Source of the DNA: an uncultured Candidatus Saccharimonadales bacterium | GTDB taxonomy: Bacteria; Patescibacteriota; Saccharimonadia; UBA4664 | DNA length: 64,000 nucleotides | NCBI GenBank assembly: GCA_964505035.1 | Contig: CAZDGK010000001.1 | Coordinates: 12,270 to 76,269 of the forward strand | Direction of reading: 5' to 3' | Shown: positions 1-45,834 of the stretch, one piece after another | How the letters are laid out: every line of letters begins with the position of its first letter | How positions within the stretch are numbered: position 1 is the stretch's first letter | Translations under genes and position numbers: made by a program | The notes under the pieces: model-generated | What the model was told of the DNA's origin: nothing | The model's database searches: none | What the model saw: only the letters and a program-made list of their open reading frames with translations

Positions 1-13
1 GGATGTAGACTTT

Positions 14-658
14 ATGGTTATAACCAGTCCGACCCACTGGATGGGCCACGAAGAACTTGGCCAACGTGCCGATGAAACTGGTCAAATCGTTTCGCAAACA
101 ATTTCTGAAGAACTTGCGGCACGCGGTGGAAACCCTACCCGCCTTATTAACACTAGCGACAACATTCACGGCGATCTTACCAGGCAGCATAGAGGCATTG
201 AAGAAGCCCGCCTATTCAATGATCGCCAATTTACGGCGTTCATGCGCGAGCGCTACGGTGGCCAAGGTCGCGAATTTTGGGATGCGGTTAATGCAGACAC
301 CCACCGTGAACTGCGCGAAAGCCTGGGAGCAGAAGGGCCAGAAGATGTTGCCGCTAGGGTCCAGAGAACAATCGACCTCATTGCGCGTTTTGGCGAATAC
401 TACGAGCATCGCAACCCTGGTCGCAGGCTAGCGACGTTTATTATTACTCACCAAGAAGATCTTGAACCTTACGCGCAGCGTCGGCTAGGTGTTGCACCTG
501 CCGATTTCCAGCCTGGTTACAACGACGGCCTAGAAATCGCCATAGGCGCCGATGGGACAGCGACTGCCACGGTAAATGGACGAGAGTATGAAGCACCGGT
601 AACAACCAATCGGCCCCTTCCAGAGCGACAGCCAGGCGAGGCCGAACCAGGTGAGTAA
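14..658 (+). CDS. Hypothetical protein, probably 5'-truncated by the window edge. It lies in the low-GC island and overlaps the start of the next gene.
   Basis: The reading frame is open back to nt 2. The stop overlaps the start of the 651..3125 ORF. Local GC is about 45-55%. No motif I recognise. Confidence 0.4.
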   Translation: MVITSPTHWMGHEELGQRADETGQIVSQTISEELAARGGNPTRLINTSDNIHGDLTRQHRGIEEARLFNDRQFTAFMRERYGGQGREFWDAVNADTHRELRESLGAEGPEDVAARVQRTIDLIARFGEYYEHRNPGRRLATFIITHQEDLEPYAQRRLGVAPADFQPGYNDGLEIAIGADGTATATVNGREYEAPVTTNRPLPERQPGEAEPGE

Positions 659-3125
659 AAAGCTGAATTTTATACCGATGTACGAGATCGGTATGATCTC
701 GCCGCTTTACCCATGTATCGAGAACGGAGCCACATTTACCGATTTAATGCCGAAACTCGGTTTTTATGGCGACAAACACTTTTTGCTGTATTCAAACTTC
801 AATCTGGCTACCGCATACTACGAAGCCGACGAAATGTTACTATCAGGCAGGTATACATTTAGGCACTTGTCGAAGCCAACGCAGTTCACCCATTTTGTAA
901 ACGGCGTACATGAATCTGTTGCTAGAATACGTCAGTTCCTAGATAGGCTCGATAAGTTGGATGTTTGGACTATGCCGCAGGCAGAGCTAATAGACTTGCT
1001 TATAGAAAACAGCGAGATCGAAGCTAACATCTTCGCCTACTATAACAACACCCAACCTCAGAATTTCGCCATATTTGAACAAAAAATTATGGCGGCTCTG
1101 CGCAAAAAAGGCTTAGCCGAAGACGAAGCAATAGCAGCCATGTCGACGCTAACAACGTCTGAAGTCCCCACCCGTCTTAGCGAAGACGAATCCGACTGGC
1201 TACGTTTGGTCTTGGCGGCCAAACAGCAGCTTCCTTCTGACTGGAAAGCAATACGGCTGGAAAAGACCCACCCTGGCATTTACTCAAAGCTGCAAAAGCA
1301 CTTTGACGTTTATAAAACCCTACTGCTCGGCGATGGAAACTGGCAGCCTGATGTCAGCCATTATGTAAGCCTTCTCCGCAATGACATTGTTCGCCCGGCT
1401 GTTGAGCTGAATGAACGCCTAAAAGAACTAACCCAGTTTGCGACCAAGACTAAAGTGGCTAAAGCCGCACTCATTAAGCGCCTGGCGCTAACTGACGACA
1501 TAGTATTTTATGCTCATGTTATTAGCGAAGTAGGACATGTAAGGCTAATGATGCGAATAGATGGATTTATGCCGCTCGCCTATGCCAACGACAAGCCAAT
1601 CGTCGAGGCCCTAGCCCGCACATACAAGCTAGGTTCCCCAGAATTCAGATACATCACCTATGATGAGCTACTTAGCCTGCGCTCAAAGAATCCGCAACTA
1701 AACGCAGCAGAACTGAAGCGCCGGTTCAAGGAAAAGCACTTCCTTCTGATAGTAAACAATGGCAAGTACGAAATGTTGTTTGGCAAAAGTGCAGATATGG
1801 CCTTCGCCAAACTTGTGCCAGAAGCAAATTACTATACCGTAGAAGAGTTGTCGGGTAGTACAGCAATGGGCGGTCGCGTCAAAGGTATGGCCGTTGTATT
1901 TAACTGGGGTGACAATCTGCAAGATGCGCTAGACAAACTGCCTAAAGATGCCATTTTGGTGGCCGGTCAGACTAGGCCGCAGCTAATGCCATTAATCCGC
2001 GCGAGTAAAGGAATTATTACCGACGAGGGTGGTGTTATGAGCCACGCTGCGATAGTTGCTCGCGAGTTAGAAATGCCATGCATCGTAGGAACAAAAGTAG
2101 CGACAAAAGTGCTAAGGACAGGCGACTTAATCGAGCTAGATGCTGACAACGGTGTAATTAAGGTTATAGAGCACACTAACAAGACCAAAGCCGCACTATC
2201 TTACAAACGTATGTCTGCAACACAAAAGACAAAGAAGCTTGCCGGTAAGCCGGCAAGCACAACGTTGGTCGTTCAGCCCATTCTGCAATTCGATGAAATT
2301 AAGCAAGGCGAAACGGGTCTGGTTGGCGGTAAGGGCGGATCACTAGCTGCACTTTCGCGGGCGGGGCTGCCAGTTCCACCAGGGTTTGTGGTTACTACAG
2401 AATGCTTTAGGGCGTTTTCGACAAGCAAGATACCCGGCGACGTTCAAAAGAAGATCCTCGCAGCCTTCGACAAACTAGGGATAGATTATGTTGCGGTTCG
2501 GTCTTCGGCGATTGCAGAAGATTCTAAAGACACGTCCTGGGCCGGCCAGTTCGATACCCTATTGAATGTTACTCGCGATGGTTTAATTGCAGCAATTCAG
2601 AGCTGCTGGTATTCTGCCGAATCTGACTTGGTGCAGGATTATGCCAAAGATAACAAAATCGGGCGCGAAGATTTGGCACTTGCAGTGGTGGTTCAGGCAA
2701 TGGTTTCTAGTGATGTGTCTGGCGTGGCGTTTACCCACAACCCAGTTACCGGCGCCGCAAACGAAATAATGATAGAGGCCTGCTTTGGACTTGGTGAGAT
2801 GTTAGTCCAGGGCATGGTGACGCCAGATAACTTCTTGGTTGATAAGCAAGATTTAAGCGTTATGTCGCACGCGGCCAATAAACAACAGGTCATGCTCAGT
2901 TATGTGAAGGGCCAAAACATTGAGCTGCCCGTGCCTAACCCTAAAGCCAGTAAGCTTACTAAAACCCAACTGTTGGTAGTCGCTGGCCTTGCAAAGCGCA
3001 TAGAAGACTTCTACGGCACACCTCAAGACATTGAATGGGCGATGTCTAAGGGCCGAGTATACATAGTCCAATCACGCCCCATCACAACGCTGAAATCTTC
3101 TCGTCGTAAGGCGTCAAAGACCTAG
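651..3125 (+). CDS. PEP-utilising-enzyme / rifampin-phosphotransferase-like protein with permuted domain order: an N-terminal domain of unknown function, then a swivel phosphohistidine domain, then a C-terminal PPDK_N-type ATP-grasp domain.
   Basis: Phosphohistidine domain motif: 'GIITDEGGVMSHAAIVARELEMPCIVG'. The C-terminal half carries 'GGKGGSLAAL...LPVPPGFVVT...VAVRSSAIAEDS....IVQSRPIT', typical of the PEP-synthase/PPDK N-terminal nucleotide-binding domain. 824 aa. GC about 45% versus about 63% elsewhere. Confidence 0.75.
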   Translation: MSKKLNFIPMYEIGMISPLYPCIENGATFTDLMPKLGFYGDKHFLLYSNFNLATAYYEADEMLLSGRYTFRHLSKPTQFTHFVNGVHESVARIRQFLDRLDKLDVWTMPQAELIDLLIENSEIEANIFAYYNNTQPQNFAIFEQKIMAALRKKGLAEDEAIAAMSTLTTSEVPTRLSEDESDWLRLVLAAKQQLPSDWKAIRLEKTHPGIYSKLQKHFDVYKTLLLGDGNWQPDVSHYVSLLRNDIVRPAVELNERLKELTQFATKTKVAKAALIKRLALTDDIVFYAHVISEVGHVRLMMRIDGFMPLAYANDKPIVEALARTYKLGSPEFRYITYDELLSLRSKNPQLNAAELKRRFKEKHFLLIVNNGKYEMLFGKSADMAFAKLVPEANYYTVEELSGSTAMGGRVKGMAVVFNWGDNLQDALDKLPKDAILVAGQTRPQLMPLIRASKGIITDEGGVMSHAAIVARELEMPCIVGTKVATKVLRTGDLIELDADNGVIKVIEHTNKTKAALSYKRMSATQKTKKLAGKPASTTLVVQPILQFDEIKQGETGLVGGKGGSLAALSRAGLPVPPGFVVTTECFRAFSTSKIPGDVQKKILAAFDKLGIDYVAVRSSAIAEDSKDTSWAGQFDTLLNVTRDGLIAAIQSCWYSAESDLVQDYAKDNKIGREDLALAVVVQAMVSSDVSGVAFTHNPVTGAANEIMIEACFGLGEMLVQGMVTPDNFLVDKQDLSVMSHAANKQQVMLSYVKGQNIELPVPNPKASKLTKTQLLVVAGLAKRIEDFYGTPQDIEWAMSKGRVYIVQSRPITTLKSSRRKASKT

Positions 3126-3534
3126 CAAATAACTTTGTGGCTTACTGCCGGCCGGCATTACAACGAGATTGCCTGCTCTACCCTCAAGGATGTAGTACAT
3201 GAAATCTGACTCATGTTCAACGAGTGTGGTTTCGTGTCCATTTTCCGCGTCGATCAGTACAAAACCGGCTTTGTCGCTTAGTTCCCGGCTGGGAAATATT
3301 TTGCCTTAATGCCGACTTTATCAAAAGAAATAGTCGAGGGTTCATGAATTACATACATGCTGAGTGTATAGCGAATCTATGTCATAGCTATGTGGACCTT
3401 GCAAAAGTTTGGACATCCTATCTCTCCTGCCAGTAATTATCTATTTATTGCCTCCACAAAGCCCTGGCTGGTATACTATGCCAGACCTCAATCAGTCTGT
3501 CCGGATTCGTCCGGCAGCTCAGAAGGGTGGCGAC

Positions 3535-4041
3535 ATGTCCGACATACAGCCAATAACGAGCGGACCATGGTATTACTGTGCCCTCGTGACCATCCTCGTT
3601 GGATGGCCCCTCACGCTCGACGCGCTTTTGCGCTGGCCCTCCAGCTATCGCAAAGCCGGCCTGCACAAGTGGAAGTGGGTCACAGCGGCCCTCCTCTCCA
3701 ATCTGCTGTTCTACCCGGGGCTCGTCTTCGCGATCGTCTATCTCTTCAGCGCACGCGCTAAAATCAGGGCGACCAAACCCCGCCCCATACGCGATGCGTT
3801 CCGGGAAGCGAGAGAAACCAGCAACTCCGGCGGCTCCGGCAGCACCAGCGGCTCCACCACTGGTAGCGGACGGGGATCGACCGGCAGCAAGCGGCAATCG
3901 TTTATGCCGGACCGGCCGGCACATGTGCCAACCAAGCGGACACCCGTGCCCTGCGGCGCATGCCGGGCGACCGGACGCAACCCAGACGGCACCGTCTGCA
4001 CCTCGTGCGGCGGAAGCCGCAATGTGATTGGCACCTTCTAA
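3535..4041 (+). CDS. Small membrane protein (2-3 TM helices) with a C-terminal double CxxCxGxG (DnaJ-type) zinc-finger motif.
   Basis: An AGAAGGG Shine-Dalgarno (SD) sequence precedes the ATG at 3535. Hydrophobic segments present. C-terminus reads 'CGACRATGRNPDGTVCTSCGGSR'. An upstream in-frame extension to 3409 is possible. Confidence 0.5.
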   Translation: MSDIQPITSGPWYYCALVTILVGWPLTLDALLRWPSSYRKAGLHKWKWVTAALLSNLLFYPGLVFAIVYLFSARAKIRATKPRPIRDAFREARETSNSGGSGSTSGSTTGSGRGSTGSKRQSFMPDRPAHVPTKRTPVPCGACRATGRNPDGTVCTSCGGSRNVIGTF

Positions 4042-10018: not shown

Positions 10019-10519
10019 GTGTTGCCAACATCAGAACCAACACTCGTATCTGTTGCCAGAATCCCTAATGTGGCAATTGTCACCAAGGATCTGCTAACAG
10101 CCCATCAGCGACTCATGGCCACTTACGACCCAAGCAACCCGCCCAAGGTAGTCAATCTAAGGCAGATGATCCGCGATCCCAACACTGTCATGTTGGTGGC
10201 TATCGCCGGACCACAACCCAAAGGACGAGCCGCCTGGGTTACCCTAAAAGGAGCCGACATTGTCGGCAGCCTGACGCTTATCATCAACCGGACGCTCACC
10301 CAAACCGTGGGCTTCATACCGCACGTAGTGGTCGATCCAGCTCGCCAAAACGAGGGGATTGGCACCATGCTGGTTCGGGAAGCCCTCAGGGAGAGCAGGG
10401 GACGCGGCGTCACCAGAGTTGAGCTAACCTCGGGCCGAGATAAGCCAGCCGCCAATCACGTCTACGCCAAACTGGGGTTTCAGTTGCACGAAACCAACAA
10501 CTGGCGCTACATCCTGTAG
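10019..10519 (+). CDS. GNAT-family N-acetyltransferase.
   Basis: 'VVVDPARQNEGIGTMLVREAL...AKLGF' matches the acetyl-CoA-binding motif A. Confidence 0.7.
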   Translation: MLPTSEPTLVSVARIPNVAIVTKDLLTAHQRLMATYDPSNPPKVVNLRQMIRDPNTVMLVAIAGPQPKGRAAWVTLKGADIVGSLTLIINRTLTQTVGFIPHVVVDPARQNEGIGTMLVREALRESRGRGVTRVELTSGRDKPAANHVYAKLGFQLHETNNWRYIL

Positions 10520-10589
10520 CCCATCAGCTCAACATTACCGGCCGGGCACCCTTGCGTGCTCGGCCGCTACCTTTAAGGCCTCAAGGCCG

Positions 10590-11126
10590 TCAGATCTCCA
10601 GCTCGGTGCAGCTACCAGGCTCCACCTCGAGCTTCCAAGTCTCCTCGTTGGACATCCCGCGCACCACAGCCAGTATCGAGTACACCACCCACTGCGATGT
10701 CACCACCAGCACAGCGTCATAGGACCGGGTACGCAATTCATCAATAAAACTACCCGCACGTACCTTGATGTCCTCAATCGACTCACCGCCGTTGAAGCGG
10801 GCCGTCCAGCGATTCGGCGCCGCCTCGAGCGCGTCCTTGAGCTCCTTGAATGGCCGGCCCTCAAACCCAGAGCGATGCTCATCCAGCCGCCGGTCAATCT
10901 CAATGGGCAGGTGATGAAACTGGTTAATAATCTCGGCCGTCTGCCGCGTTCGCTTCAGTTCTGACGCCATGATCCTGTCCAGCTGCACATCCTTTAGCCG
11001 CCTAGCCACAGCTTCAGCCTGCTCAATACCCACTGCCGTCAGGTGTACATCCACCGCCGGGTCGTAGTTGCATATATGCAGGTCGTTATAATTGGTGCGG
11101 CCGTGCCGGACCAGATAGAGTTTCAT
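10590..11126 (-). CDS. Histidine phosphatase (phosphoglycerate-mutase-like) family protein.
   Basis: 'MKLYLVRHGRTNYN' RHG motif. ATG at 11124-11126. Confidence 0.75.
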   Translation of the reverse strand: MKLYLVRHGRTNYNDLHICNYDPAVDVHLTAVGIEQAEAVARRLKDVQLDRIMASELKRTRQTAEIINQFHHLPIEIDRRLDEHRSGFEGRPFKELKDALEAAPNRWTARFNGGESIEDIKVRAGSFIDELRTRSYDAVLVVTSQWVVYSILAVVRGMSNEETWKLEVEPGSCTELEI

Positions 11127-11187: not shown

Positions 11188-11679
11188 ATGAGCAATTGGT
11201 ACCGTCCAACTACCGGCATCGACAAGCTGTTTGAAGGCGGCCTCATCATCAAAGGTTTCACTGGTCTGCTGGAGTTCTCCGCTGGCTTGGCGCTCGTGTT
11301 TGTGCGGCCCGACACCATTAGTCGGTTCGTCGCCACGCTCACTCAGCCCGAGCTAGCCGAGGACCCTCGCGATCGTCTCGTGCACTACCTCATGCAGTCG
11401 GTGCGCGAGCTAGGCGGCACCAGCCGGGCGTTTCTCATCGCCTACCTCTGGGTACATGCTGCCGTCAAGCTCATTGCCGTCATTGGCCTGCTCCGCAACC
11501 ACCTCTGGGCCTATCCGTTTTCGCTCATTACGCTCGGCCTGCTGATGCTCTACCAGGTCTATAGCATCATCTTCGTTAGCCCGTCCTTACTGATGATTGG
11601 CCTCACCTTGTTTGACGTCGTCGTGCTCTGGCTCATCTGGCATGAGTACGGCATTATGCGTCTCCGCCTCAAGCCATAA
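11188..11679 (+). CDS. Small integral membrane protein with four predicted TM helices.
   Basis: Hydrophobic profile. 163 aa. Confidence 0.5.
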   Translation: MSNWYRPTTGIDKLFEGGLIIKGFTGLLEFSAGLALVFVRPDTISRFVATLTQPELAEDPRDRLVHYLMQSVRELGGTSRAFLIAYLWVHAAVKLIAVIGLLRNHLWAYPFSLITLGLLMLYQVYSIIFVSPSLLMIGLTLFDVVVLWLIWHEYGIMRLRLKP

Positions 11680-11719
11680 CTCTTGTGCTTACACCAATCC
11701 GCCAGCTATCATTGAGCTA

Positions 11720-36090: not shown

Positions 36091-37143
36091 ATGGCAACCA
36101 AGAAAAAAGTTGAAGACACCGTCGAAGAGGTCGTTGAAACCCCCGAAGCGACCGAAGCGGTAGAGGTTCTGGACACACCCGTCGAGCTCGTCACCGAAGC
36201 GCCGTCGGCCGACACGAGCAGCGACACCGGCGAGACTAGCGCAGACGAAACTGACGCAGACGAGACCGAAGAGGCCAAGATCGCCAAGGCCGGCAAGCGT
36301 AGCGCCAAGGCTGTCCGCGAGGCCGAAGCCGAAGAGGCCCGCCAGGAGGCCAAGGAGCACCGCGCCGAGACCGAGGCAGCCACCGACGCCGCCCCCAAAG
36401 CAGCCAAGCGCTCCACGCCCAACCCACTTCACCAGCACGGCAAGAAGTACCGCGAGGCCGCCAAGCTTGTCGACCGCACCAAGCAGTACGAGCTAGCCGA
36501 GGCCCTGGAACTTGCCCAGAAGACGAGCACCACCAAGTTTGACAGCTCCGTCGAGCTGCACATCAGCCTCGGTGTTGACCCTCGCCAAGCCGACCAAATG
36601 GTGCGCGCCAGCGTCGTGCTACCGCACGGTACCGGCCGCAGCCTGCGCGTCGCCGTCTTCGCCGATGGCAAGGCCGCCGATGACGCCAAGACCGCCGGCG
36701 CCGATATCGTGGGTACCGACAAACTGCTAGCCGACATCGAGGCCGGCAAGCTAGACTTTGACGTCCTGATCGCCACTCCCGACAAGATGGCCGGTCTCGG
36801 CAAAGTCGCCAAGGTTCTCGGTCCGCGCGGCCTCATGCCTAACCCCAAGTCCGGCACCGTCACCCCCGACGTCGCCAAGGCCGTCACCGAAACCAAGACC
36901 GGCAAGGTTGAGTTCCGTATCGACAAGCAAGCCATTGTGCACATCGCCGTCGGCAAAGTCAGCTTCAAGGCCGCCGATCTGCTCGACAATGCCACCACCC
37001 TCATCAAGGCCGTCCTAAAGGCCAAGCCGGCCGCTGCCAAGGGCACCTACGTGAAAACCATTGCCGTCACCACCTCCATGGGTCCCGGCATCAAAATCGA
37101 CGCTCCCACCACCACCAGCGCTCTGTCTACCAGCAAAAAGTAG
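36091..37143 (+). CDS. rplA: 50S ribosomal protein L1 with an acidic N-terminal extension of about 115 aa.
   Basis: The L1 core starts at '[21 protein letters not shown]'. A preceding Glu/Asp/Thr/Ala-rich segment is absent from typical 230-aa L1 proteins. Confidence 0.9.
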
Positions 37144-37187: not shown

Positions 37188-37787
37188 ATGGCAATTTCGA
37201 GTGGGATCTTTGGTGATGGCTCCAATTTTGAGCAACGCAACCTCGCCAACTATGAGGTCGTAGCCGAGAGCGTTCAGTTACTGAAGGCTCTCGGGCTCAA
37301 GATTGTCCTCACCGCCGGCTCGTTTGACCTCATTCACGAAGGCCACGCCCAGTATCTGGAGCGCGCCCGTCAGTTTGGCGACCTCCTCATCACTGGCGTC
37401 GACTCCGACGACAAGATCCGCCACCGCAAAGGCCCAGACCGGCCCATCGTGCCGCAGGCCGAGCGTTTGCGCATGTTGACGCATCTGCGCCACGTCGACT
37501 TAGTCGTGCTCAAGCCACTCGAGGCCGAGAAATGGGCGCTCATCAAAGCCGTCCGCCCCGACGTGCTAGTGGCCACCGAGGAGACCTACACCCAAGACCA
37601 GATCACCGAGCTCGAGCGGCTCTATTGTGGCCGCGTCGAAGTCCTTCCGCGCATGGCCACCACGACCACCTCGGCCAGGCTGCGCCTTCTCCAGCTCAAT
37701 CTCGCCGATCGCATGACCAGCCGCCTCGCCAATCAGCTGCCCGACATTGTCCGCCAAGTCATCCGCGACCAAATCGAAGGCCGCTAG
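37188..37787 (+). CDS. Cytidylyltransferase-like (HxGH) nucleotidyltransferase family protein.
   Basis: 'LTAGSFDLIHEGHAQYL' HxGH motif and 'ITGVDSDD'. Confidence 0.7.
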   Translation: MAISSGIFGDGSNFEQRNLANYEVVAESVQLLKALGLKIVLTAGSFDLIHEGHAQYLERARQFGDLLITGVDSDDKIRHRKGPDRPIVPQAERLRMLTHLRHVDLVVLKPLEAEKWALIKAVRPDVLVATEETYTQDQITELERLYCGRVEVLPRMATTTTSARLRLLQLNLADRMTSRLANQLPDIVRQVIRDQIEGR

Positions 37788-37790
37788 CCC

Positions 37791-38627
37791 ATGTCCAAGC
37801 AGCTGCTTGTCTACATTCCGGTTGTGCACGCCGGCTATATCACCCTGTTCGACCGCCACCTCGATGCCGACGAAGTATTATTAATTGGCCCTGACTTTAC
37901 TCGCGATTGGCCTATACTAGCCAAGGAAATTCGTGCCCTCGAGCCCAAACTTGCCCTCAGTAGTCTCCAGGCCATCTACCCGAGACTGCGGCTGCGCATC
38001 ATCGGACCGGCCGATCTGCCCAGTGCCGTCACCGCCACCACCCTGATCGCGCCAGCGGAGGACCTATTGCGGCATCTCATCAGTCATTATCACCTCGACC
38101 AGGGCCGGGATGTCCAATATGACCCAACCTTCCTACGCTGGGATCGCGACTCCAGCCGTGACGCACGTCCCGTCCAGCTCACCCCAGCCACGCCGCTGTC
38201 CGAACTCGACCAGTCCATGCTCGGTCTGGCCACGGATGCCGCGCGCCGCAGCTCCGACTGGTGGCGCCAAGTCGGCGCCGTCGCCGCCACGCCCACTGGC
38301 CCTCTCGTCGCCCACAATCACCACCTGCCCACGCCGTACGCACCCTACATCAGCGGCGATCCGCGCAACAACTTCCGCCGCGGCGAGTATCTGCAGCTAT
38401 CGACGGCCATTCATGCCGAGGCCGCCATCATCGCCCAGGCCGCCCGCCGGGGCATCAGCCTCCAGCGCACTACCATGTTCGTGACCACCTTTCCGTGCCC
38501 AGCGTGTGCCCGGCTCATCGCCGAGACCGGCATTGCCAAGCTGTATGTAGCCGACGCCTACAGCCTGCTCGACGGCGCCGATATCCTCGCCACCGCCGGT
38601 GTCGAAATCATTTGGGTCAAGACGTAG
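37791..38627 (+). CDS. Deoxycytidylate/cytidine deaminase-family protein with an extra N-terminal domain of about 140 aa.
   Basis: Zinc ligands 'HAEAAII' and 'PCPACARLI' at the C-terminus. Adjacent to thyA and folA. Confidence 0.75.
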   Translation: MSKQLLVYIPVVHAGYITLFDRHLDADEVLLIGPDFTRDWPILAKEIRALEPKLALSSLQAIYPRLRLRIIGPADLPSAVTATTLIAPAEDLLRHLISHYHLDQGRDVQYDPTFLRWDRDSSRDARPVQLTPATPLSELDQSMLGLATDAARRSSDWWRQVGAVAATPTGPLVAHNHHLPTPYAPYISGDPRNNFRRGEYLQLSTAIHAEAAIIAQAARRGISLQRTTMFVTTFPCPACARLIAETGIAKLYVADAYSLLDGADILATAGVEIIWVKT

Positions 38628-38669
38628 AAAGCCCCTTGTTCTCTGATCGCAAGAACAAGGGGCTTCGGC

Positions 38670-39125
38670 TCAAGCGGCCGGTCGCCCGGTTAGCTTGACC
38701 TTGATCGGCTCGTGAGCGGGATCATTGGTGTCGCCCACGACCACATGAGCGTGGACGTGGAAGATGGTGCCGGCAGTGTGGGCCGGGTGACCATTGCGAA
38801 CGAAGAAGCCGTAGTGCTCAAACTCAAATCTGAGCCTCAGCACCCTCAGCAGCCACCCCAGCTCCATCCAAGCCTCGGGGCTCAGATCGGCCACATCGGT
38901 GATGTGTTGCTTGGGTAGTAGCAAGAAGTGCAGTCTGGAGCCAGCATAAGGAAATTGGTTGAACGTCACCGCCCAATAATCCGCCTCCTCAATGATTGGC
39001 CCCTCCTGCTCGGCGGCGAGATGCTCCGGGCAAAACATGCAAATACCCGATTCCTCCAGCCGCACCATCTTGGCCCGCTGCTCGTCAGTGCGCGCATTGG
39101 GCAGATAGTAGAGTGGCCTATTCAT
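38670..39125 (-). CDS. HIT (histidine-triad) family hydrolase.
   Basis: 'HVHAHVV' HxHxHxx motif. The start is taken at the internal Met so as not to overlap folA. Confidence 0.8.
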   Translation of the reverse strand: MNRPLYYLPNARTDEQRAKMVRLEESGICMFCPEHLAAEQEGPIIEEADYWAVTFNQFPYAGSRLHFLLLPKQHITDVADLSPEAWMELGWLLRVLRLRFEFEHYGFFVRNGHPAHTAGTIFHVHAHVVVGDTNDPAHEPIKVKLTGRPAA

Positions 39126-39672
39126 CCTGCCACGTCCTCGCTCGGTACGACATTCGTTCCCAGTACCGAACTCCGGTCGGAAACTGGTCTCGCTCGTCGT
39201 ACTGCTTGCACGACTCGATGCGCACCAGCCGGAAGCTGCCAAGCCAATCGAGTGGCATAAACGCATCCGCGCCGGCCACCCTTGTCTCAACCACCGTCTG
39301 GTAGATCCGGTCTGTCCGGCCCAGACATTGGCTATAGACCGCCGCGCCGCCGATGACAAATACCTCGTCATCGCCGTTTTCCTGGGCCAGACACTCTGCC
39401 CGGTCCAGAGCCGCTCCAACACTCCCTGCCCACTCGACGCCCTCCAGGGGCGGCCGGTCGGGCTGATGTGTCGCCACCACGCAGGTGCGGCCAGGCAATG
39501 ATTTGCCCAACCGCGCCACGATCGAGGCGTGAGTCCGCGAGCCAACCACCAGCACGTGGCCGGTGGTCAGCTCGCGAAACCGCTTGAGGTCGCTGGGGAT
39601 GTGCCAGGGCAAATCATTGCCCCGGCCAATCGCTCCAGCGCGGTCCGTTGCTACCACCATCGAGATGGTCAT
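39118..39672 (-). CDS. folA: Dihydrofolate reductase.
   Basis: 'ISMVVATDRAGAIGRGNDLPWHIPSDLKRF'. 4-nt overlap with thyA. Confidence 0.85.
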   Translation of the reverse strand: MTISMVVATDRAGAIGRGNDLPWHIPSDLKRFRELTTGHVLVVGSRTHASIVARLGKSLPGRTCVVATHQPDRPPLEGVEWAGSVGAALDRAECLAQENGDDEVFVIGGAAVYSQCLGRTDRIYQTVVETRVAGADAFMPLDWLGSFRLVRIESCKQYDERDQFPTGVRYWERMSYRARTWQDE

Positions 39673-40562
39673 GGTAGCACCGGCATGCGCAGACCCGGAT
39701 GCGGGTCGTAGTCGAACAGCTCAAAGTGCTCGGCCCGGAAGTCATGGATGTCCGTGATCTTCTGGCCGGCCACCGTCAGAGCCACCGTCGGCAATCGCCG
39801 CGGCTCGCGATACAGCATGGTACGAACGTACTGCAGCTGGCCGGAGTAGATGTGTGCATCCGAGATGGTGTGATAGTACACGCCCGCCGGAATCCCGGTG
39901 AGCTGCTCCAGCATCAGCAGGAGCGCCGCGTACTGCACCATGTTGGACGGCACGCCGCCCGGCACATCGCCACTGCGCTGGAACATGTGCAAATGCAGCC
40001 GCCCGTTTAGGACGCGCACGTGCACCCAGCCGTGACAGGGCGCGATGGTGGTTTTGGGCGTCTTACCCTTGCCACGCACCTGGTACTGCGGGATCCACGG
40101 ACTCACGAAGTGCGTCCGGTCGTCCGGCAGCTCGCGGATCTGCTCCACCAGGTGCTGGTACTGGTCGAAGGGCGGACCCTCAGCAGTGGGAAAGTATCGA
40201 AACGCCCCACCGTAGAATCCAGGACCCATCGTGCCCGGCGGCAGGCCACGCTTGGCGGTCTTCTCGGGCGTCGCCCAAGGATCCCACCAGTCGCAGCCAA
40301 ATGCCTCCATCTCGTCCAGGCTAGTCGCGCCGTTGATAAACGCGCACAGTTCGCCGATTGGCTTACGCCAGAAGCCGTTGAGGCTCCGATCGGTGATCAT
40401 CGGGAAACCATTGGCCAGCTCGAACTTCATTACCTGCTGCATCAGCGTCAATGCCACTTCACCCTGACGGGTGGGCACCTCTTCGCCAGCGGTCACAATA
40501 TTGTGCAACAGCTGGCGGTATTGGCTGTCCGGCTCGCGCCTTTCGTATGCAAGGTACTTCAC
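39669..40562 (-). CDS. thyA: Thymidylate synthase (ThyA family) with a divergent N-terminal region.
   Basis: Catalytic 'APCHGW'. 'MFQRSGDVPGGVPSNMVQYAALLLMLEQLTGIPAGVYYHTISDAHIY'. Probable GTG start after AAAGGGGGG; the ORF runs to 40616. Confidence 0.75.
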   Translation of the reverse strand: MKYLAYERREPDSQYRQLLHNIVTAGEEVPTRQGEVALTLMQQVMKFELANGFPMITDRSLNGFWRKPIGELCAFINGATSLDEMEAFGCDWWDPWATPEKTAKRGLPPGTMGPGFYGGAFRYFPTAEGPPFDQYQHLVEQIRELPDDRTHFVSPWIPQYQVRGKGKTPKTTIAPCHGWVHVRVLNGRLHLHMFQRSGDVPGGVPSNMVQYAALLLMLEQLTGIPAGVYYHTISDAHIYSGQLQYVRTMLYREPRRLPTVALTVAGQKITDIHDFRAEHFELFDYDPHPGLRMPVLP

Positions 40563-40682
40563 TGGACCCCCCTTTCTATCGGTATAAGGGCCAGCCGCCA
40601 CACTGTACCATAGCACCCACAGATCTGCTATACTCCTTGGCAGTCTGCCGCAAGGGCAGCCAGTTCCTAGAAGGGAAGTCCC

Positions 40683-41105
40683 ATGACAAAGGGGCCAACG
40701 CCCCGGGCTGTTGGCGCGCTGGTCATAAGCCGCGATCTGATCCTGCTCATGCGGCGCGGCCGGGCCGTGCTCTGGTCCGCACCGTGCGGCGAGCTCTCCG
40801 GAGCAGACCAGGCTGCAGCTGCCACTGAATTGGCCAAGAAACAGGCCTATGCCATCGTGCAGCCGCAGCGGTTAGTCGGCATCACCACCGATTTTGGTGA
40901 CGTTCTCGGCCCAATCGCCTGGTGGAGCTGCACTCTGCTGCAGCCACTGCCGGGTAGCGATGATCCCAGCTATCAATTGCTGGGAGCCGACTACCGGCAC
41001 CTGGAGTGGGTCAAACTCCAGGACGTCAGCCACTACCCGCTAGTCCCGGCGTTGCACCAACTCTTCGCCGGGCACTACGCCAACCTGGAGCTGTTCTTCA
41101 GCTAG
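40683..41105 (+). CDS. Hypothetical protein, possibly a degenerate NUDIX fold.
   Basis: 'GALVISRDLILLMRRGRA' resembles a NUDIX N-terminal strand, but no canonical Nudix box is present. Confidence 0.35.
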   Translation: MTKGPTPRAVGALVISRDLILLMRRGRAVLWSAPCGELSGADQAAAATELAKKQAYAIVQPQRLVGITTDFGDVLGPIAWWSCTLLQPLPGSDDPSYQLLGADYRHLEWVKLQDVSHYPLVPALHQLFAGHYANLELFFS

Positions 41106-41162
41106 ACTAAGCCGGGGGGTCGCCACATTTGGCACCTCCGGCTTCTCCATATTCAGACTATA

Positions 41163-42419
41163 ATGACAATTATGAATCAACTTGTCCGCCTCACTCGCCA
41201 CGAAGCCGCTCGCCAACGAGACACCCTCAATCTCATCGCCTCCGAGAATTATCCCTCGCCAAGCACGCTGGCACTCCTTGGTAGTGTCTGGTCAAACAAA
41301 TACGCCGAGGGGCAGCCCGGCAAGCGCTATTATGCCGGCAATGTCTATGCCGACGAGCTGGAGAGTTTCGTCCAAGCCAAAGCCCTAGCCATCTTCGACT
41401 CCACCGGCGAGTATGGCGCAAATGTCCAGGTATTGTCCGGCTCGCCCGCCAATGCCACCGTATTCCTCGCTGCCCTCGCCGCCGGCGACACCGTCATGAG
41501 CCTCAATCTCGCCAATGGCGGCCACCTCAGCCACCTGCACGCCACCTCCAACTACCTCAAGTTCTTCCGGCTCATCAATTATGACGTCGTGGCCACCGCC
41601 CACGGCTACGAGATCGACCAGGCCGACTACCAAGCCAAATTGACCGAGCACCAGCCCAAGCTCGTCATCATCGGCTTCTCGGCCTACCCTCGCGCCTACC
41701 AGTTTGAGCCTCTCATCAAGCTTGCCCACCGGCATGGCGCGCTGGTGCTGGCCGATATCGCTCACATTGCCGGCCTAGTGGCCGCTGGTCTGCACGACAG
41801 CCCATTCAAACCGGGCGCAGCCGGCGCCGATTACGTTTCCATGACCACCCACAAAACCCTACGGGGGCCCCGCGGCGCCCTACTCTTTGCCAAGCACCAG
41901 CACCTCGCCGAACTCAACCGCACCGTCTTCCCGGGCACCTCGGGCGGTCCGCACCTGCACCAAATCGCCGCCACCGGCCAGGCCTTGCTCGAGGTGCTCG
42001 GCGAGGACCAATACCCCGACCGCCGGCCGTTCCCAGAGTATGCCAAGGCCATTATCAGCACCTGCCGCGCCCTTGAAGCCGGGCTAAACGATGGGGGACT
42101 CGCCGCCATTTCGCCCACCCAGACCCACCTCACTCTCACCCAGCTCCCACCCGAGCTCGATAGTCTCGACGTCCAGCGGCGCCTCGAGTCGCTCGGCCTC
42201 ATCCTCAATCGCAATCTCATTCCCTTTGACGCCAAGACCGCCTGGCGCCCCAGTGGTTTGCGCCTCGGCACCGCCGCGCTGGCCAGCCGTGGCCTCACAC
42301 CAGAGTCAGCCCGCACTCTAGGCCAGCTCATTGCCGATATCGTCCTGCGCCGCCTACCGGACGCAGCGGCTCAGCGGCGCGTCAAAGACCTGGTCGCCCA
42401 GCTCGCCTGGTGGTATTAA
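41163..42419 (+). CDS. glyA: Serine hydroxymethyltransferase.
   Basis: 'LIASENYPSP...' and the PLP-lysine region 'TTHKTLRGPRG'. Confidence 0.95.
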   Translation: MTIMNQLVRLTRHEAARQRDTLNLIASENYPSPSTLALLGSVWSNKYAEGQPGKRYYAGNVYADELESFVQAKALAIFDSTGEYGANVQVLSGSPANATVFLAALAAGDTVMSLNLANGGHLSHLHATSNYLKFFRLINYDVVATAHGYEIDQADYQAKLTEHQPKLVIIGFSAYPRAYQFEPLIKLAHRHGALVLADIAHIAGLVAAGLHDSPFKPGAAGADYVSMTTHKTLRGPRGALLFAKHQHLAELNRTVFPGTSGGPHLHQIAATGQALLEVLGEDQYPDRRPFPEYAKAIISTCRALEAGLNDGGLAAISPTQTHLTLTQLPPELDSLDVQRRLESLGLILNRNLIPFDAKTAWRPSGLRLGTAALASRGLTPESARTLGQLIADIVLRRLPDAAAQRRVKDLVAQLAWWY

Positions 42420-42472: not shown

Positions 42473-43681
42473 TCATATGCTAACCCGCAGCCTGACAGGA
42501 GCATTTACCACTTCCGCGTATAGTTCCGTCATAGCTTCTGCCGTGTGGTTCCAGCCGTAGCGGGCATGCACCCGCCGCGCCGCCGCCTTGCCGTACTTGC
42601 GACGCAGCGCCGCATCACCAAGCAGCTCGCTGATAGCGCTAGTCAGCCCAGCGCGATCGCCCGGCATAACCTGCCGGCCGGTACTGCCATCTACCACACT
42701 GTCAATCAGACCTCCCACAGCATAGGTTACCACCGGCACACCACAGGCCATCGCCTCTAGCGGCGTCAAGCCAAACGGTTCATACCAGGGTGTGCACGTC
42801 ACGAGGTCGGCCGAGCGGTACCAGCTCGCCATCTCCGATGCCGGAACCGCACCCACCAACTGCACCTGATCGGTCACACCGAGCGCGTCAGCCAGCTGGT
42901 ACAGTCGCCTAAACTCCGGGTCACGATCAGCCCCATGTTCGGGCCCGCCCACCACCACCAGCTCGACGCCGGGCAGGTTAGGCAGGATCCGAATCACCTC
43001 CTCGAACCCCTTGCGCGGAACGGGTCGGCCAACTGCCAGTAGCCGGGGCCCGGTCTTATTGACCGTCGGCCCGCGCGGCTGAAACTGGTTCAGATCAATG
43101 CCGGAAGGAATGAGCCGGATTTGGGTAGCGGGGACGCCAAGAGCCATTAGTTCGGCCACCTCATCGCTACATTGAGCCACGACTCGCTGCACCACCAGGG
43201 CCAGCTGCCGTTCAATCGACATCCGCCCCGCCGGACTAGTATCGTCCTGGCGCTGGAAACGTCGCTTGACGTTGCCGTGAGCATGATAGGTCAGCACAAC
43301 CGGAATCTGCCGCGGCATCGCCCCCCGCAACGCCGCGATTCCGCTCATCCAGAAGTGGGCATGAACCACATCCGGCCGCCTCTTCGACTCCGCAAACCGA
43401 CTGCTCAGCCAGCTGCCAAATGGCACCATATAGGGCATGAGCTCGTCCTTGGGCACGCCTTCGGGAGGACCCACGGGCACATGCACCACCTCATACCCCC
43501 CTGGAGCGCTGATGCGCCCGGCCCTGACCATGCTGTCGCGCCGGGTGTAGACCGTCACTTCGTGACCCACCGCCACCAGCGCCGCAGCCAGACCGGCCAC
43601 GTGTCGATTTTGCCCACCGGCGTCAATTCCGCTAATCGTTGCCAGCGGGCTGGCATGCTCTGACACAAGTGCAATCCTCAT
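42473..43681 (-). CDS. GT4 glycosyltransferase (MshA/BshA-like retaining family).
   Basis: 'MRIALVSEHASPLA...GGQNRHV' N-terminus and a C-terminal EX7E-type region. ATG at 43679-43681. Confidence 0.8.
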   Translation of the reverse strand: MRIALVSEHASPLATISGIDAGGQNRHVAGLAAALVAVGHEVTVYTRRDSMVRAGRISAPGGYEVVHVPVGPPEGVPKDELMPYMVPFGSWLSSRFAESKRRPDVVHAHFWMSGIAALRGAMPRQIPVVLTYHAHGNVKRRFQRQDDTSPAGRMSIERQLALVVQRVVAQCSDEVAELMALGVPATQIRLIPSGIDLNQFQPRGPTVNKTGPRLLAVGRPVPRKGFEEVIRILPNLPGVELVVVGGPEHGADRDPEFRRLYQLADALGVTDQVQLVGAVPASEMASWYRSADLVTCTPWYEPFGLTPLEAMACGVPVVTYAVGGLIDSVVDGSTGRQVMPGDRAGLTSAISELLGDAALRRKYGKAAARRVHARYGWNHTAEAMTELYAEVVNAPVRLRVSI

Positions 43682-43819
43682 GCCGCACCCCCCGTTGGGT
43701 TGCAACATCGGGGATCAAGGTACTTCACCGGACACTCCCTTCTATTTGTGAGAATTAGCGCCAGCCGGGGCACTCTACCACAACCTTTGCCAACACGCAC
43801 CGTTAGTACTTACAAAAGC

Positions 43820-43997: not shown

Positions 43998-44528
43998 ATG
44001 GCCATTTCTCGTGAGGCCAAGGAGTCGGCGGTAGCTCAGCTAACGCAGGACCTCAGCCACATCAAATTGGCCGTCATGACCGACTACCGCGGTCTCACCG
44101 TCGGTGAAGTAGAGGAGTTGCGCAATCTGCTCCGTGCTCAGGGTATGACCTACCGGGTCACCAAGAACACGCTGCTGCGCATCGCCACCAAAGCCAATGC
44201 GGCCCTGGCCGACATTGACCCACAGAGCTTCACCGGCCCCATGGCCCTGGCGATGGGCTTTGATGATGAAGTGGCTCCGGCCCGCGTCATCTTCCAGTAC
44301 GCCAAGGCGCATGACGCGCTTGAGGTGGTAGGCGCCATCACCGGCGACGGACAGCTATTATCTGCCGCCGACGTGAAGGCCCTGGCCACGCTACCCACTC
44401 GCGAGCAACTCATTGCTCAGGTGGTCGGCACCATCGCGGCACCCCTCACCGGGTTTGTCGGTGTCATGGCGGGCAACGTCCGCTCCATCATTAATGTTCT
44501 AAACGCTCTGAGCGAAGCTCGGGCCTAA
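43998..44528 (+). CDS. rplJ: 50S ribosomal protein L10.
   Basis: Size, conserved N-terminal region and position next to rplL. Confidence 0.9.
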   Translation: MAISREAKESAVAQLTQDLSHIKLAVMTDYRGLTVGEVEELRNLLRAQGMTYRVTKNTLLRIATKANAALADIDPQSFTGPMALAMGFDDEVAPARVIFQYAKAHDALEVVGAITGDGQLLSAADVKALATLPTREQLIAQVVGTIAAPLTGFVGVMAGNVRSIINVLNALSEARA

Positions 44529-45054: not shown

Positions 45055-45834
45055 ATGACACCCGAGAATGGACCCAACCAAGCCCACGAGTTTACCGCCA
45101 AGGACCAAGCCGAGCTGCTATCCCTGCTCGGCCACCACGATGCCGAATCGAGCACCGAAGGCGTCGAGCACCTCGAGCCAGCCACCGGCAGCGACATGTT
45201 CCGCGACTTCCAAGCCACCTTCATGCTCGGCAATGGCGGCGCCACTGGCCAAGAGGCCGCCATGCGGCTGATGGCCGGCGCCTACCGTCGCAACACTACC
45301 GGACCAGAGCTCCAAGCCGCCACCGCCGAAGCCAACCAGCGTATCGCCGACCTACGCATACCCAATAAGCACGCGCCCATACCGGTTGCCCAGTACGGCG
45401 CTTATGCCATCAACTCAGCCGACAATCTTCTCAAGGGCAGCTCCTTTGTCGATCGCTGGGCCGTTTTTCAGGGCCTCATTCTTGGTCAGCTGACACCACC
45501 CAGAGCGGCCACCCAGCAACAGCTCAGACAAGACATCATTACCAGCGCACTCCAAATGGATGTCCGCTACATTACTGAAGGCCGGAAAGGACGCGAGAAG
45601 AGTGGCGACCCTCACGAGAGCATCTATCGCGAATATATCCTCGGCGACAGTCTGCGTGGCAGTGATTACGTCATCGCACTCCGGGATGCTCTGCGCGAAA
45701 CCGCCCTCGAAATGGTCCAGTCCGGCCACATGCCGCCCCAGCTAGCCGAAGTTGTGCAGCTATGGGAGGCCCATCATCCCGGCCAGCGTTTCTTTGATCT
45801 GCCCGCTCCGCGCCAGCGCCCTAAATCAAATTGA
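45055..45834 (+). CDS. Hypothetical protein, occupying the position where rpoB normally follows rplL.
   Basis: TATGAT lies 7 nt upstream of the ATG. 259 aa. No motif I recognise. Confidence 0.5.
   Translation: MTPENGPNQAHEFTAKDQAELLSLLGHHDAESSTEGVEHLEPATGSDMFRDFQATFMLGNGGATGQEAAMRLMAGAYRRNTTGPELQAATAEANQRIADLRIPNKHAPIPVAQYGAYAINSADNLLKGSSFVDRWAVFQGLILGQLTPPRAATQQQLRQDIITSALQMDVRYITEGRKGREKSGDPHESIYREYILGDSLRGSDYVIALRDALRETALEMVQSGHMPPQLAEVVQLWEAHHPGQRFFDLPAPRQRPKSN

Follow-up and report, generated by a model that had tools for sequence, protein, structure and literature searches.

Organization of the locus

The genes described here are predicted to make thymidylate (dTMP) in an uncultured Candidatus Saccharimonadales bacterium. 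They lie on contig CAZDGK010000001.1 within a stretch of 64,000 nucleotides that was analyzed as a whole and is called the window in the following. According to its listing of open reading frames (ORFs), the cluster is flanked by secE-nusG-rplK-rplA and rplJ-rplL, and it contains genes for an HxGH nucleotidyltransferase (NT), a two-domain deaminase, a HIT-family protein, dihydrofolate reductase (DHFR, folA), thymidylate synthase (ThyA) and serine hydroxymethyltransferase (SHMT, glyA) (Table 1). We think, with a probability of about 0.7, that five of these genes form a conserved cassette of Actinomycetota type that was swapped in for the native dTMP genes, that its core chemistry is ordinary, and that NT and HIT act as a nucleotide front end of the pathway.

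Six of the seven genes named in an initial annotation, which had been made from the DNA alone, were recovered where it had placed them, with significant Pfam or NCBIfam family matches. The pyrimidine module that it proposed, leading from dCMP via dUMP to dTMP and including the folate cycle of DHFR and SHMT, is supported as a dedicated and co-transcribed gene set. Its description of this module as specialised holds, but in the sense of a conserved Actinomycetota-type cassette, and the exotic version of the idea, which was built on ThyA, is refuted. Two points go beyond it, namely that the core of the cluster is such a conserved cassette, and that this cassette replaced a native module between rplA and rplJ.

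The NT and deaminase genes are separated by 3 nt, in agreement with their annotated direct adjacency. On the opposite strand the thyA stop codon overlaps with the folA start in an ATGA sequence, and the ATG of the HIT gene is located inside the final 11 nt of folA, which bears out the translational coupling that had been claimed for HIT and folA. The start of thyA is most likely the GTG at 40562, as this agrees with the deposited protein (P0145) and with all homologues. Between the convergent deaminase and HIT genes, the 57-nt region 38622-38678 contains a near-perfect inverted repeat with a folding energy of -25.3 kcal/mol and a z-score of -3.84 against shuffles. A promoter scan found no consensus sigma-70 site in the intergenic region upstream of thyA (40563-40682).

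Table 1. Features between rplA and rplJ, with their positions in the window. L092 and L099 denote two native Saccharibacteria islands used for comparison.
Feature	Position	Strand	Remarks
rplA (ribosomal protein L1, acidic N-terminal extension)	36091..37143	+	Native left flank; 73-75% identity to rplA of L092 and L099
NT, HxGH nucleotidyltransferase resembling RfaE domain II, HldC and ECT	37188..37787	+	PF01467; first cassette gene
Whole deaminase ORF, 278 aa	37791..38627	+
Deaminase N-terminal domain, predicted cytidylyltransferase-like (HIGH) fold	37791..38174	+	Motif PVxHxG[H/Y]
dCMP-deaminase domain, zinc-dependent (HAE, PCxxC), conserved insert before HAE	38175..38627	+	PF00383
Hairpin between convergent deaminase and HIT genes, probably a bidirectional terminator	38629..38665	.	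Folding against shuffles
HIT-family nucleotide hydrolase or transferase	38670..39128	-	PF01230; motif HVHAHVV
folA (DHFR), Actinomycetota-type	39118..39672	-	PF00186, 126 bits
thyA, 297 aa from the GTG start (ORF 39669-40616)	39669..40562	-	PF00303
Intergenic region between divergent thyA and orphan ORF/glyA, presumed promoter region	40563..40682	.	120-bp gap
Orphan ORF, 140 aa	40683..41105	+	Outside the conserved cassette
glyA (SHMT), native Saccharibacteria gene outside the transferred cassette	41163..42419	+	PF00464
GT4 glycosyltransferase, best match MshA-like	42473..43708	-	PF00534 and PF13439; neighbour, no pathway role shown
rplJ (L10)	43998..44528	+	Native right flank; 81% identity to rplJ of L092

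Thymidylate synthase and the core pathway

Judged from the encoded proteins, the core chemistry is ordinary. The deaminase would convert dCMP to dUMP, from which ThyA would form dTMP with methylene-tetrahydrofolate (CH2-THF) as second substrate, yielding dihydrofolate (DHF). DHFR would then reduce DHF to tetrahydrofolate (THF), and SHMT would regenerate CH2-THF from THF.

ThyA matches PF00303 with 208 bits against a cut-off of 24.3, passes the NCBIfam equivalog TIGR03284 with 159.5 against 108.35, and all of its 60 best solved relatives are either ThyA or a viral ThyA homologue (E 7e-48 and weaker). It was aligned with a panel of ThyA from E. coli, M. tuberculosis and human, a T4-like td, ThyP3 of phi3T, and the hydroxymethylases gp42 of T4 and gp29 of SPO1. 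The E. coli sequence in this panel agrees with the solved-structure alignment, and that of gp42 is 100% identical to GenBank M37159. In the alignment, R21, E58, W80, Y94, R126, C146, H147, Q165, R166, S167, D169, N177, H207 and Y209 are kept. The catalytic Cys146 (in PCH) and the residues E58, H147, Y94, D169, H207 and Y209 occur in the window protein and likewise in the five Actinomycetota cassette ThyAs that were tabulated. Of the four arginines of the dUMP phosphate clamp, R21, R126 and R166 are present (as is S167), and R127 is replaced by Thr throughout the cassette clade. Residue 177, which we take to select uracil over cytosine when it is Asn, is Asn in the window and in all cassette ThyAs but Asp in T4 gp42.

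The protein is nevertheless divergent. Its identity to the E. coli enzyme is no more than about 35%, and its departures comprise R127T, I79W, F176S (Ser or Ala in the clade), an insert of 7 residues ahead of the catalytic Cys, and Pro as the last residue. Positions 79 and 176 contact the folate in E. coli ThyA. The initial annotation had drawn attention to the stretch 'TRQGEVALTLMQQVMKFEL' in place of the textbook motif, and this stretch is indeed present. It had also raised the idea that the protein belongs to the dUMP/dCMP hydroxymethylase branch of the family and had suggested a phylogeny against the respective clades. If ThyA hydroxymethylated dUMP or dCMP, or methylated dCMP, the cassette would make a modified pyrimidine nucleotide. 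The low identity to the E. coli enzyme and the two insertions could be read in that way, and so could a metagenomic relative of the cassette whose neighbors are an HD nucleotidase, a HAD phosphatase and a second ThyA-like gene fused to a pterin-binding domain. However, Asn177 and all residues for methyl transfer are kept, the TIGR03284 cut-off is passed, and the identity to SPO1 gp29 and T4 gp42 is as low as 19% and 18%. In a neighbor-joining tree, the cassette clade is sister to canonical ThyA to the exclusion of both hydroxymethylases. Furthermore, the coupled DHFR, which is also found in 63 of 81 cassette loci, speaks against such an activity, as only a DHF-producing enzyme needs DHFR. Within the limits of sequence evidence, these observations exclude a hydroxymethylase, and we regard this idea as very improbable. 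ThyA thus appears to be a divergent but bona fide thymidylate synthase of a cassette-specific clade.

The deaminase and its N-terminal domain

The deaminase matches PF00383 (dCMP_cyt_deam_1) with 48.6 bits against a cut-off of 25 (E 8e-13), and this match covers residues 139-254 only. H208, A209, E210, C236 and C239, which constitute the HAE and PCxxC motifs, are invariant in 40 deaminase homologues. The best solved relatives are the dCMP deaminases of cyanophage S-TIM5 and of T4 (about 7e-11), and from these relatives and the linkage to ThyA we infer that the substrate is dCMP. The homologues number about 2,000 at roughly 50% identity; those with names belong to Actinomycetota, and the closest one is found on a contig with 74.5% GC. 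An assignment to anti-phage systems was considered and rejected, as PADLOC returned only a local match of the deaminase and a weak one of HIT. The local match of the deaminase core to NF041025 reaches 64 bits against a cut-off of 400 and is confined to residues 193-258, and the dCTPase model of PADLOC gives 68 bits.

An extra N-terminal domain had been annotated for this protein, and the first 130-140 residues or so are indeed without a Pfam match. A check of this region, as had been suggested, was rewarding at the level of predicted structure: the model of residues 1-128 (pLDDT 88.6, pTM 0.81) points to a cytidylyltransferase-like (HxGH) fold. In the 40 homologues the motif PVxHxG[H/Y], K45, R48 and FLRWDR are invariant. 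The fourth position of the HxGH motif is Tyr in the window (H-x-G-H/Y in the family). The locus thus appears to encode two domains of the cytidylyltransferase fold, one as the free-standing NT with both catalytic motifs, and a degenerate one fused to the deaminase. An N-terminal domain of this deaminase family that Pfam does not recognise can now be described as cytidylyltransferase-like.

The nucleotidyltransferase and the HIT protein

NT matches PF01467 (CTP_transf_like) with 71.8 bits against 21 (E 8e-20). Its score of 110 bits with TIGR02199 is below the cut-off, and the same holds for all specific equivalogs (RfaE domain II, TagD, CoaD). The best solved relatives are human ethanolamine-phosphate cytidylyltransferase (ECT; 8e-21), which was matched in both of its halves, and HldC (7e-18). 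The NT motifs IHEGH and RMATTTTS align with the HxGH and RTEGISTT motifs of TagD. HIT matches PF01230 with 34.4 bits against 21.5 (E 3.5e-8), it has Hint-type solved relatives, and its His triad HVHAHVV could be aligned to solved HIT proteins.

A five-gene cassette of Actinomycetota

The order of NT and deaminase followed by HIT, DHFR and ThyA on the opposite strand is identical in Plantactinospora siamensis. In a collection with one genome per species (185,579 species genomes), 252 matching stretches were found, and among the best 80 of these, 79 are Actinomycetota or actinomycetes by their titles and one is assigned to Pseudomonadales. Streptomyces, Micromonosporaceae, Streptosporangiaceae, Trebonia and Pseudonocardia are represented among these 80, besides others. 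The window proteins were searched against 81 fetched loci to obtain counts and identities, which gave matches to the deaminase in 81, NT in 80, HIT and ThyA in 79 each, DHFR in 63, SHMT in 3 (at about 30% identity), GT4 in 2, and the orphan ORF in none of the loci. The identity to the window copies is 67-81% for ThyA, 53-68% for NT, 46-54% for the deaminase, 35-53% for HIT and 38-55% for DHFR; the top values recorded in Actinomycetota are 81% for ThyA and 56% for the deaminase. When reference ORFs from five loci were compared with all loci, no further conserved gene was detected beyond the five, save for the synteny of a Trebonia-like lineage. The co-localisation of these genes, whose core was found again in 79 of the 81 fetched loci, is far beyond chance, and outside the window genome this type of cassette is found almost only in Actinomycetota. 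The membership of NT and HIT, which had been annotated as accessory genes, is corroborated, as both accompany the deaminase and ThyA in 79-80 of the 81 loci and occasionally form fusions with the deaminase. In four proteins of about 480 residues (P0019, P0049, P0091, P0109), NT and the two deaminase domains are combined in a single chain.

Some loci deviate from the common arrangement. In a Trebonia-like group of ten loci, ThyA precedes NT and the deaminase on their own strand; this variant has no DHFR match, HIT is displaced by 0.5-3 kb in some cases, and about 7 kb of downstream synteny are shared. On the contig of P0109 (JGI 3300041965), the fused NT-deaminase, HIT and ThyA adjoin a second ThyA-like protein that is fused to a pterin-binding DUF4346, and also a HAD phosphatase, a YfbR-like HD 5'-nucleotidase, a ParB-CE protein and an MFS transporter, so that this could be a more elaborate locus for nucleotide modification or salvage. 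The cassette binned as Pseudomonadales (L065) is found on a contig with 47.8% GC, with identities of 53% for NT, 46% for the deaminase, 35% for HIT and 40% for a partial ThyA at which the contig ends; it could stem from an error in binning or from a further transfer out of Actinomycetota.

Replacement of a native module between rplA and rplJ

To see what related Saccharibacteria possess at the rplA-rplJ site, genomes with a NusG in the 90%-identity cluster of the window were examined. In one relative, rplA is followed by Dcd, Tmk, Dut, ThyA, DHFR and SHMT, and in another by Dcd, Tmk and ThyX. In the L092 island, one strand encodes Dcd-Dut, DHFR and ThyA, the opposite strand encodes a plain dCMP deaminase and Tmk and then a small ORF and SHMT, and rplJ comes next. 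The island L087 combines a canonical ThyA with NT, a long deaminase and a HIT-NUDIX fusion. In addition to this fusion, L087 has a separate HIT gene of Hint type, which is inserted further upstream between nusG and rplK (10604-11059).

The long deaminase is a family that occurs Saccharibacteria-wide (607 matches), and some of its members are fused to HIT (P0330, P0334, P0361). A native operon of an APH-family kinase, NT, HIT and long deaminase was present in all five contexts examined, in four of them just downstream of rplK-rplA. ThyA and GT4 adjoin it in every context, DHFR in three, Tmk or DNMK in three, and SHMT in one. In a profile comparison with hhalign, the deaminase domains of the cassette and the native type proved to be homologous (98.4%), and this includes the insert that precedes HAE. 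No homology was detected between the N-terminal domains of the two deaminase types (hhalign probability 0.2%). In total, three islands have Dcd without NT or HIT, and six have NT, HIT and deaminase without Dcd. The rplKA-rplJL site can thus be regarded as a swap-site for dTTP-supply modules in Saccharibacteria. In another Saccharimonadales island (L095, 7502-8058), a gene for a YafQ/ParE-type toxin is inserted together with a small partner ORF between the HIT-deaminase gene and thyA, and this insertion fits the rplA-rplJ site being an insertion hotspot.

The comparison with the native islands shows which genes of the window are of foreign type. The identity between the window and L092 is 93% for nusG, 81% for rplJ, 75% for rplA, 73% for rplL, 68% for rplK, 67% for SHMT and 66% for secE, but only 34% for DHFR and 29% for ThyA. 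With L099, it is 75% for rplK, 73% for rplA and 73% for SHMT, but 38% for NT and 28% each for ThyA and DHFR. The 64-kb window has no APH match and no match to the Dcd or Tmk of L092. Since flanks and SHMT share 65-93% identity with L092 and ThyA and DHFR only 29-34%, a foreign-type cassette has taken the position of the native thyA and folA and of the native genes for dUMP supply. By these comparisons, glyA and the flanks are native, and NT, deaminase, HIT, DHFR and ThyA are of Actinomycetota type.

The same data bear on the simpler idea of an ordinary, vertically inherited housekeeping operon of dCMP deaminase, thyA, folA and glyA, with NT, HIT and the orphan ORF as unrelated neighbors. All four core enzymes belong to standard families and related Saccharibacteria keep their dTMP genes at the same site, but such an operon would not be expected to show ThyA and DHFR so distant from a relative with well-conserved flanks while ThyA is 67-81% identical to that of Actinomycetota, nor the constant company of NT and HIT, partly as deaminase fusions, in the loci of another phylum. 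We therefore consider vertical inheritance improbable.

An assembly chimera, in which an Actinomycetota fragment was joined into a Saccharibacteria contig, would also produce high protein identity to Actinomycetota, and the window is indeed a metagenome-assembled contig. However, the GC content at third codon positions (GC3) of the cassette is 0.73-0.80 and equals that of the flanking native genes, and its GC content is 62% as compared to 68-75% in the Actinomycetota loci. This match to the native genes argues against a chimera and for a long residence in the genome. In addition, no Actinomycetota copy is closer than the above-mentioned 81% (ThyA) or 56% (deaminase), the native glyA lies between the cassette and rplJ, and the same proteins occur in a second assembly. 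A chimera is therefore hardly credible. A phage origin was considered as well and was not retained, as the best phage ThyA is 37% identical, PHROGs gave generic family matches only, and a single match was found among 2.9 million viral contigs (IMG/VR).

Possible role of NT and HIT

We infer that NT and HIT are part of the dUMP supply, because NT-deaminase, HIT-deaminase and HIT-NUDIX fusions occur in different lineages, because HIT is more constant in the cassette than DHFR, because a kinase precedes NT in the native operons, and because NT/HIT/deaminase and Dcd are mutually exclusive at the level of the islands. NDP-X compounds are classically made by a kinase and then a nucleotidyltransferase. 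Together with HIT, NT and its degenerate counterpart on the deaminase may constitute a nucleotide-handling front end that is bound to the deaminase. In the most probable scheme, NT would use (d)CTP to load a (d)CMP group onto a phosphorylated acceptor, and HIT (or NUDIX) would then release the monophosphate for deamination. The net result would be the conversion of a dCTP-level nucleotide via dCMP to dUMP, which would replace the Dcd/Dut branch that sister genomes have at the same locus. This loading-and-release step is a hypothesis, and a doubtful one, although we find it worth considering.

In a more far-reaching version, to which we give slightly less credit and which is equally tentative, NT, HIT and the insert-bearing deaminase would form an undescribed enzymatic route to dUMP via an NDP-X intermediate that is either released or deaminated as such, and this route would be shared and exchanged between Saccharibacteria and Actinomycetota. 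The native operons would add the APH-family kinase and sometimes a NUDIX domain, and the route would be an alternative to Dcd/Dut and to plain dCMP deaminases.

The main rival of the proposed front end is a regulatory role, in which NT and the N-terminal domain bind dCTP, CTP or dTTP and switch the deaminase, thereby replacing the classical allosteric site, with HIT being a house-cleaning enzyme. Classical dCMP deaminases are controlled by dCTP and dTTP, which makes such a role plausible in principle. In line with it, the N-terminal domain has no Pfam match and, in the window, carries Tyr as the fourth residue of HxGH, and a tandem of an active and a degenerate cytidylyltransferase is an architecture known from ECT. 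On the other hand, the free-standing NT keeps HxGH and a TTTS-type second motif, and the constancy of HIT (79 loci as compared to 63 for DHFR) and the HIT-deaminase fusion in Saccharibacteria argue for a pathway step. Also the APH-family kinase directly upstream of NT in the native operon suggests an activation by kinase and then nucleotidyltransferase. A regulatory role is thus rather unlikely in our view.

Another possibility is that the Actinomycetota cassette is an accessory module for resistance or back-up, providing a second ThyA and DHFR that are insensitive to natural antifolates or nucleoside analogues, and that the Saccharimonas lineage merely acquired it. The patchy distribution (about 252 stretches in the species collection) with variable surroundings, the clade-specific ThyA changes I79W, F176S/A, R127T and C-terminal Pro, of which the first two are at folate contacts of the E. 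coli enzyme, and the best NCBIfam matches of DHFR, which are trimethoprim-resistance Dfr families with scores far below their cut-offs, could be explained in this way. However, there is no producer gene cluster nearby, NT, HIT and the deaminase would be left without an explanation, and the cassette of the window occupies the native dTMP site, which suggests a housekeeping role there. We regard a resistance module as unlikely.

Several points weigh against our interpretation of a swapped-in cassette with NT and HIT as front end. The scheme requires a hypothetical acceptor molecule, and a single pyrophosphatase would be simpler. As the fourth HxGH position is Tyr in the window, the deaminase N-terminal domain may serve for nucleotide binding and not for catalysis. 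The alternation of Dcd and NT/HIT rests on nine islands, in which the sequence around each island was covered. Actinomycetota that carry the cassette normally have Dcd and Dut as well, so that a substitution of these enzymes cannot be the role of the cassette there. Further points concern the direction of transfer. In the ThyA tree, rooted with native Saccharibacteria ThyAs, the window is nested in the Actinomycetota clade in 100 of 100 bootstraps, whereas in the NT tree with the same outgroups it is sister to all Actinomycetota copies in 96 of 100. In a concatenated tree the window forms the longest branch, and midpoint rooting is uninformative on the direction because it merely reflects this long branch. 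The trees were calculated by neighbor-joining from alignments anchored to the query. As the gene set is native and widespread in Saccharibacteria, the cassette may also have originated there. No closer Saccharibacteria copy of the cassette type was found among the matches listed from a collection of 5.8 billion proteins. On balance, a transfer from Actinomycetota to the Saccharimonas lineage is somewhat favored. The known hosts of Saccharibacteria belong to the Actinomycetota, and the cassette thus represents a concrete case of the exchange of essential-pathway genes between an episymbiont and its likely host group.

Genes outside the cassette

SHMT matches PF00464 with 331 bits and NF000586 with 370.6 against a cut-off of 335. 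The ORF upstream of glyA had been annotated as NUDIX-like, but it has no recognisable NUDIX box and no match in Pfam, NCBIfam, PHROG or PADLOC. It matches the best solved MutT protein with an E-value of 0.25, has no similarity to the genuine NUDIX domain of L087, and an exhaustive HMMER search of 1.84 billion representative proteins yielded two marginal relatives only. Its GC3 of 0.77 is typical of the local coding sequence, and it is present as a hypothetical protein in two assemblies. It is therefore an orphan outside the conserved cassette. Small conserved ORFs are also found directly 5' of glyA, at the equivalent position, in the native islands, in L092 at 10341-10760 (139 aa) and in L099 at 11191-11694 (167 aa); they have no significant Pfam match, and tblastn gave no match between them and the window, including the orphan ORF.

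The GT4 protein scores 211 bits with TIGR03449, the Actinomycetota mycothiol enzyme MshA, which is below the cut-off of 462. It is only 25-40% identical to the GT4 proteins of native Saccharibacteria islands and may be a second foreign replacement. The 5' part of the window rplA (36091-36435) encodes the acidic, low-complexity extension of L1 with about 110 residues. L1 is likewise long (331-366 aa) in some relatives, namely L087, L092, L099 and the two relatives with Dcd islands, and the extensions of L092 and the window do not align. Directly 3' of rplL, an ORF of 259 aa (45055-45834) has no Pfam match. At the left end of the window, the region 1-4000 with the ORF 651-3125 has a GC content of 0.49-0.52 as compared to about 0.60 elsewhere in the window; this ORF encodes a PPDK_N/PEP-utilizer protein with a GC3 of 0.51, compared to 0.70-0.84 for the other genes measured, and may be a recent foreign insert.

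Comparison with known systems

Few pathways have been mapped as well as thymidylate synthesis. NT and HIT belong to families without an assigned role in dTMP formation, and they are tied to the deaminase and ThyA by gene order and fusion in two phyla, which suggests an unrecognised step or control point in the dUMP supply. In the full-text literature searched, we found no paper that links NT or HIT to dCMP deaminase and ThyA or that treats the Saccharibacteria island, nor a description of a cytidylyltransferase domain joined to a dCMP deaminase.

The closest everyday counterpart is the bacterial thyA-folA operon, with which the window shares the chemistry of ThyA, DHFR and SHMT and the translational coupling of thyA and folA that is found in many bacteria. 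It differs in that its ThyA belongs to a separate tight clade (67-81% identity within, about 35% to E. coli), and in that operons of the window type include HIT (79 of 81 loci) and are paired with NT and the two-domain deaminase. The phage T4 set of cd, td, frd and the dCTPase gp56 likewise leads from cytosine deoxynucleotides to dTMP with a private DHFR, and its step from dCTP to dCMP ahead of the deaminase parallels the role that NT and HIT may have. The step proposed for the window would, however, use an HxGH nucleotidyltransferase and HIT instead of a dUTPase- or MazG-type pyrophosphatase, and there is no hydroxymethylase. The Dcd/Dut route of sister Saccharibacteria supplies dUMP and resembles the cassette in its position downstream of rplA, beside ThyA or ThyX and Tmk, but it has no homology to the cassette, and the deamination in the window is predicted to take place at the level of the monophosphate.

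With respect to the individual proteins, NT together with the N-terminal domain of the deaminase resembles the tandem cytidylyltransferase architecture of ECT. Unlike in ECT, TagD or HldC, the second domain in the window is fused to a dCMP deaminase and is unrecognised by Pfam. The AvcD-type anti-phage dCTP deaminases match locally over about 60 residues around the zinc site, with scores far below the cut-off. AvcD-type enzymes have an N-terminal P-loop kinase-like domain, whereas the corresponding domain in the window is predicted to have a cytidylyltransferase fold, and the partners ThyA and DHFR make dTMP rather than deplete dCTP. All kinds of enzymes at this locus are already known, and the pathway is mostly ordinary in an unusual conserved package. 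New are the locked association of NT, HIT, deaminase and ThyA, the cytidylyltransferase-like domain of the deaminase, and the cross-phylum swap at a fixed site in a ribosomal operon.

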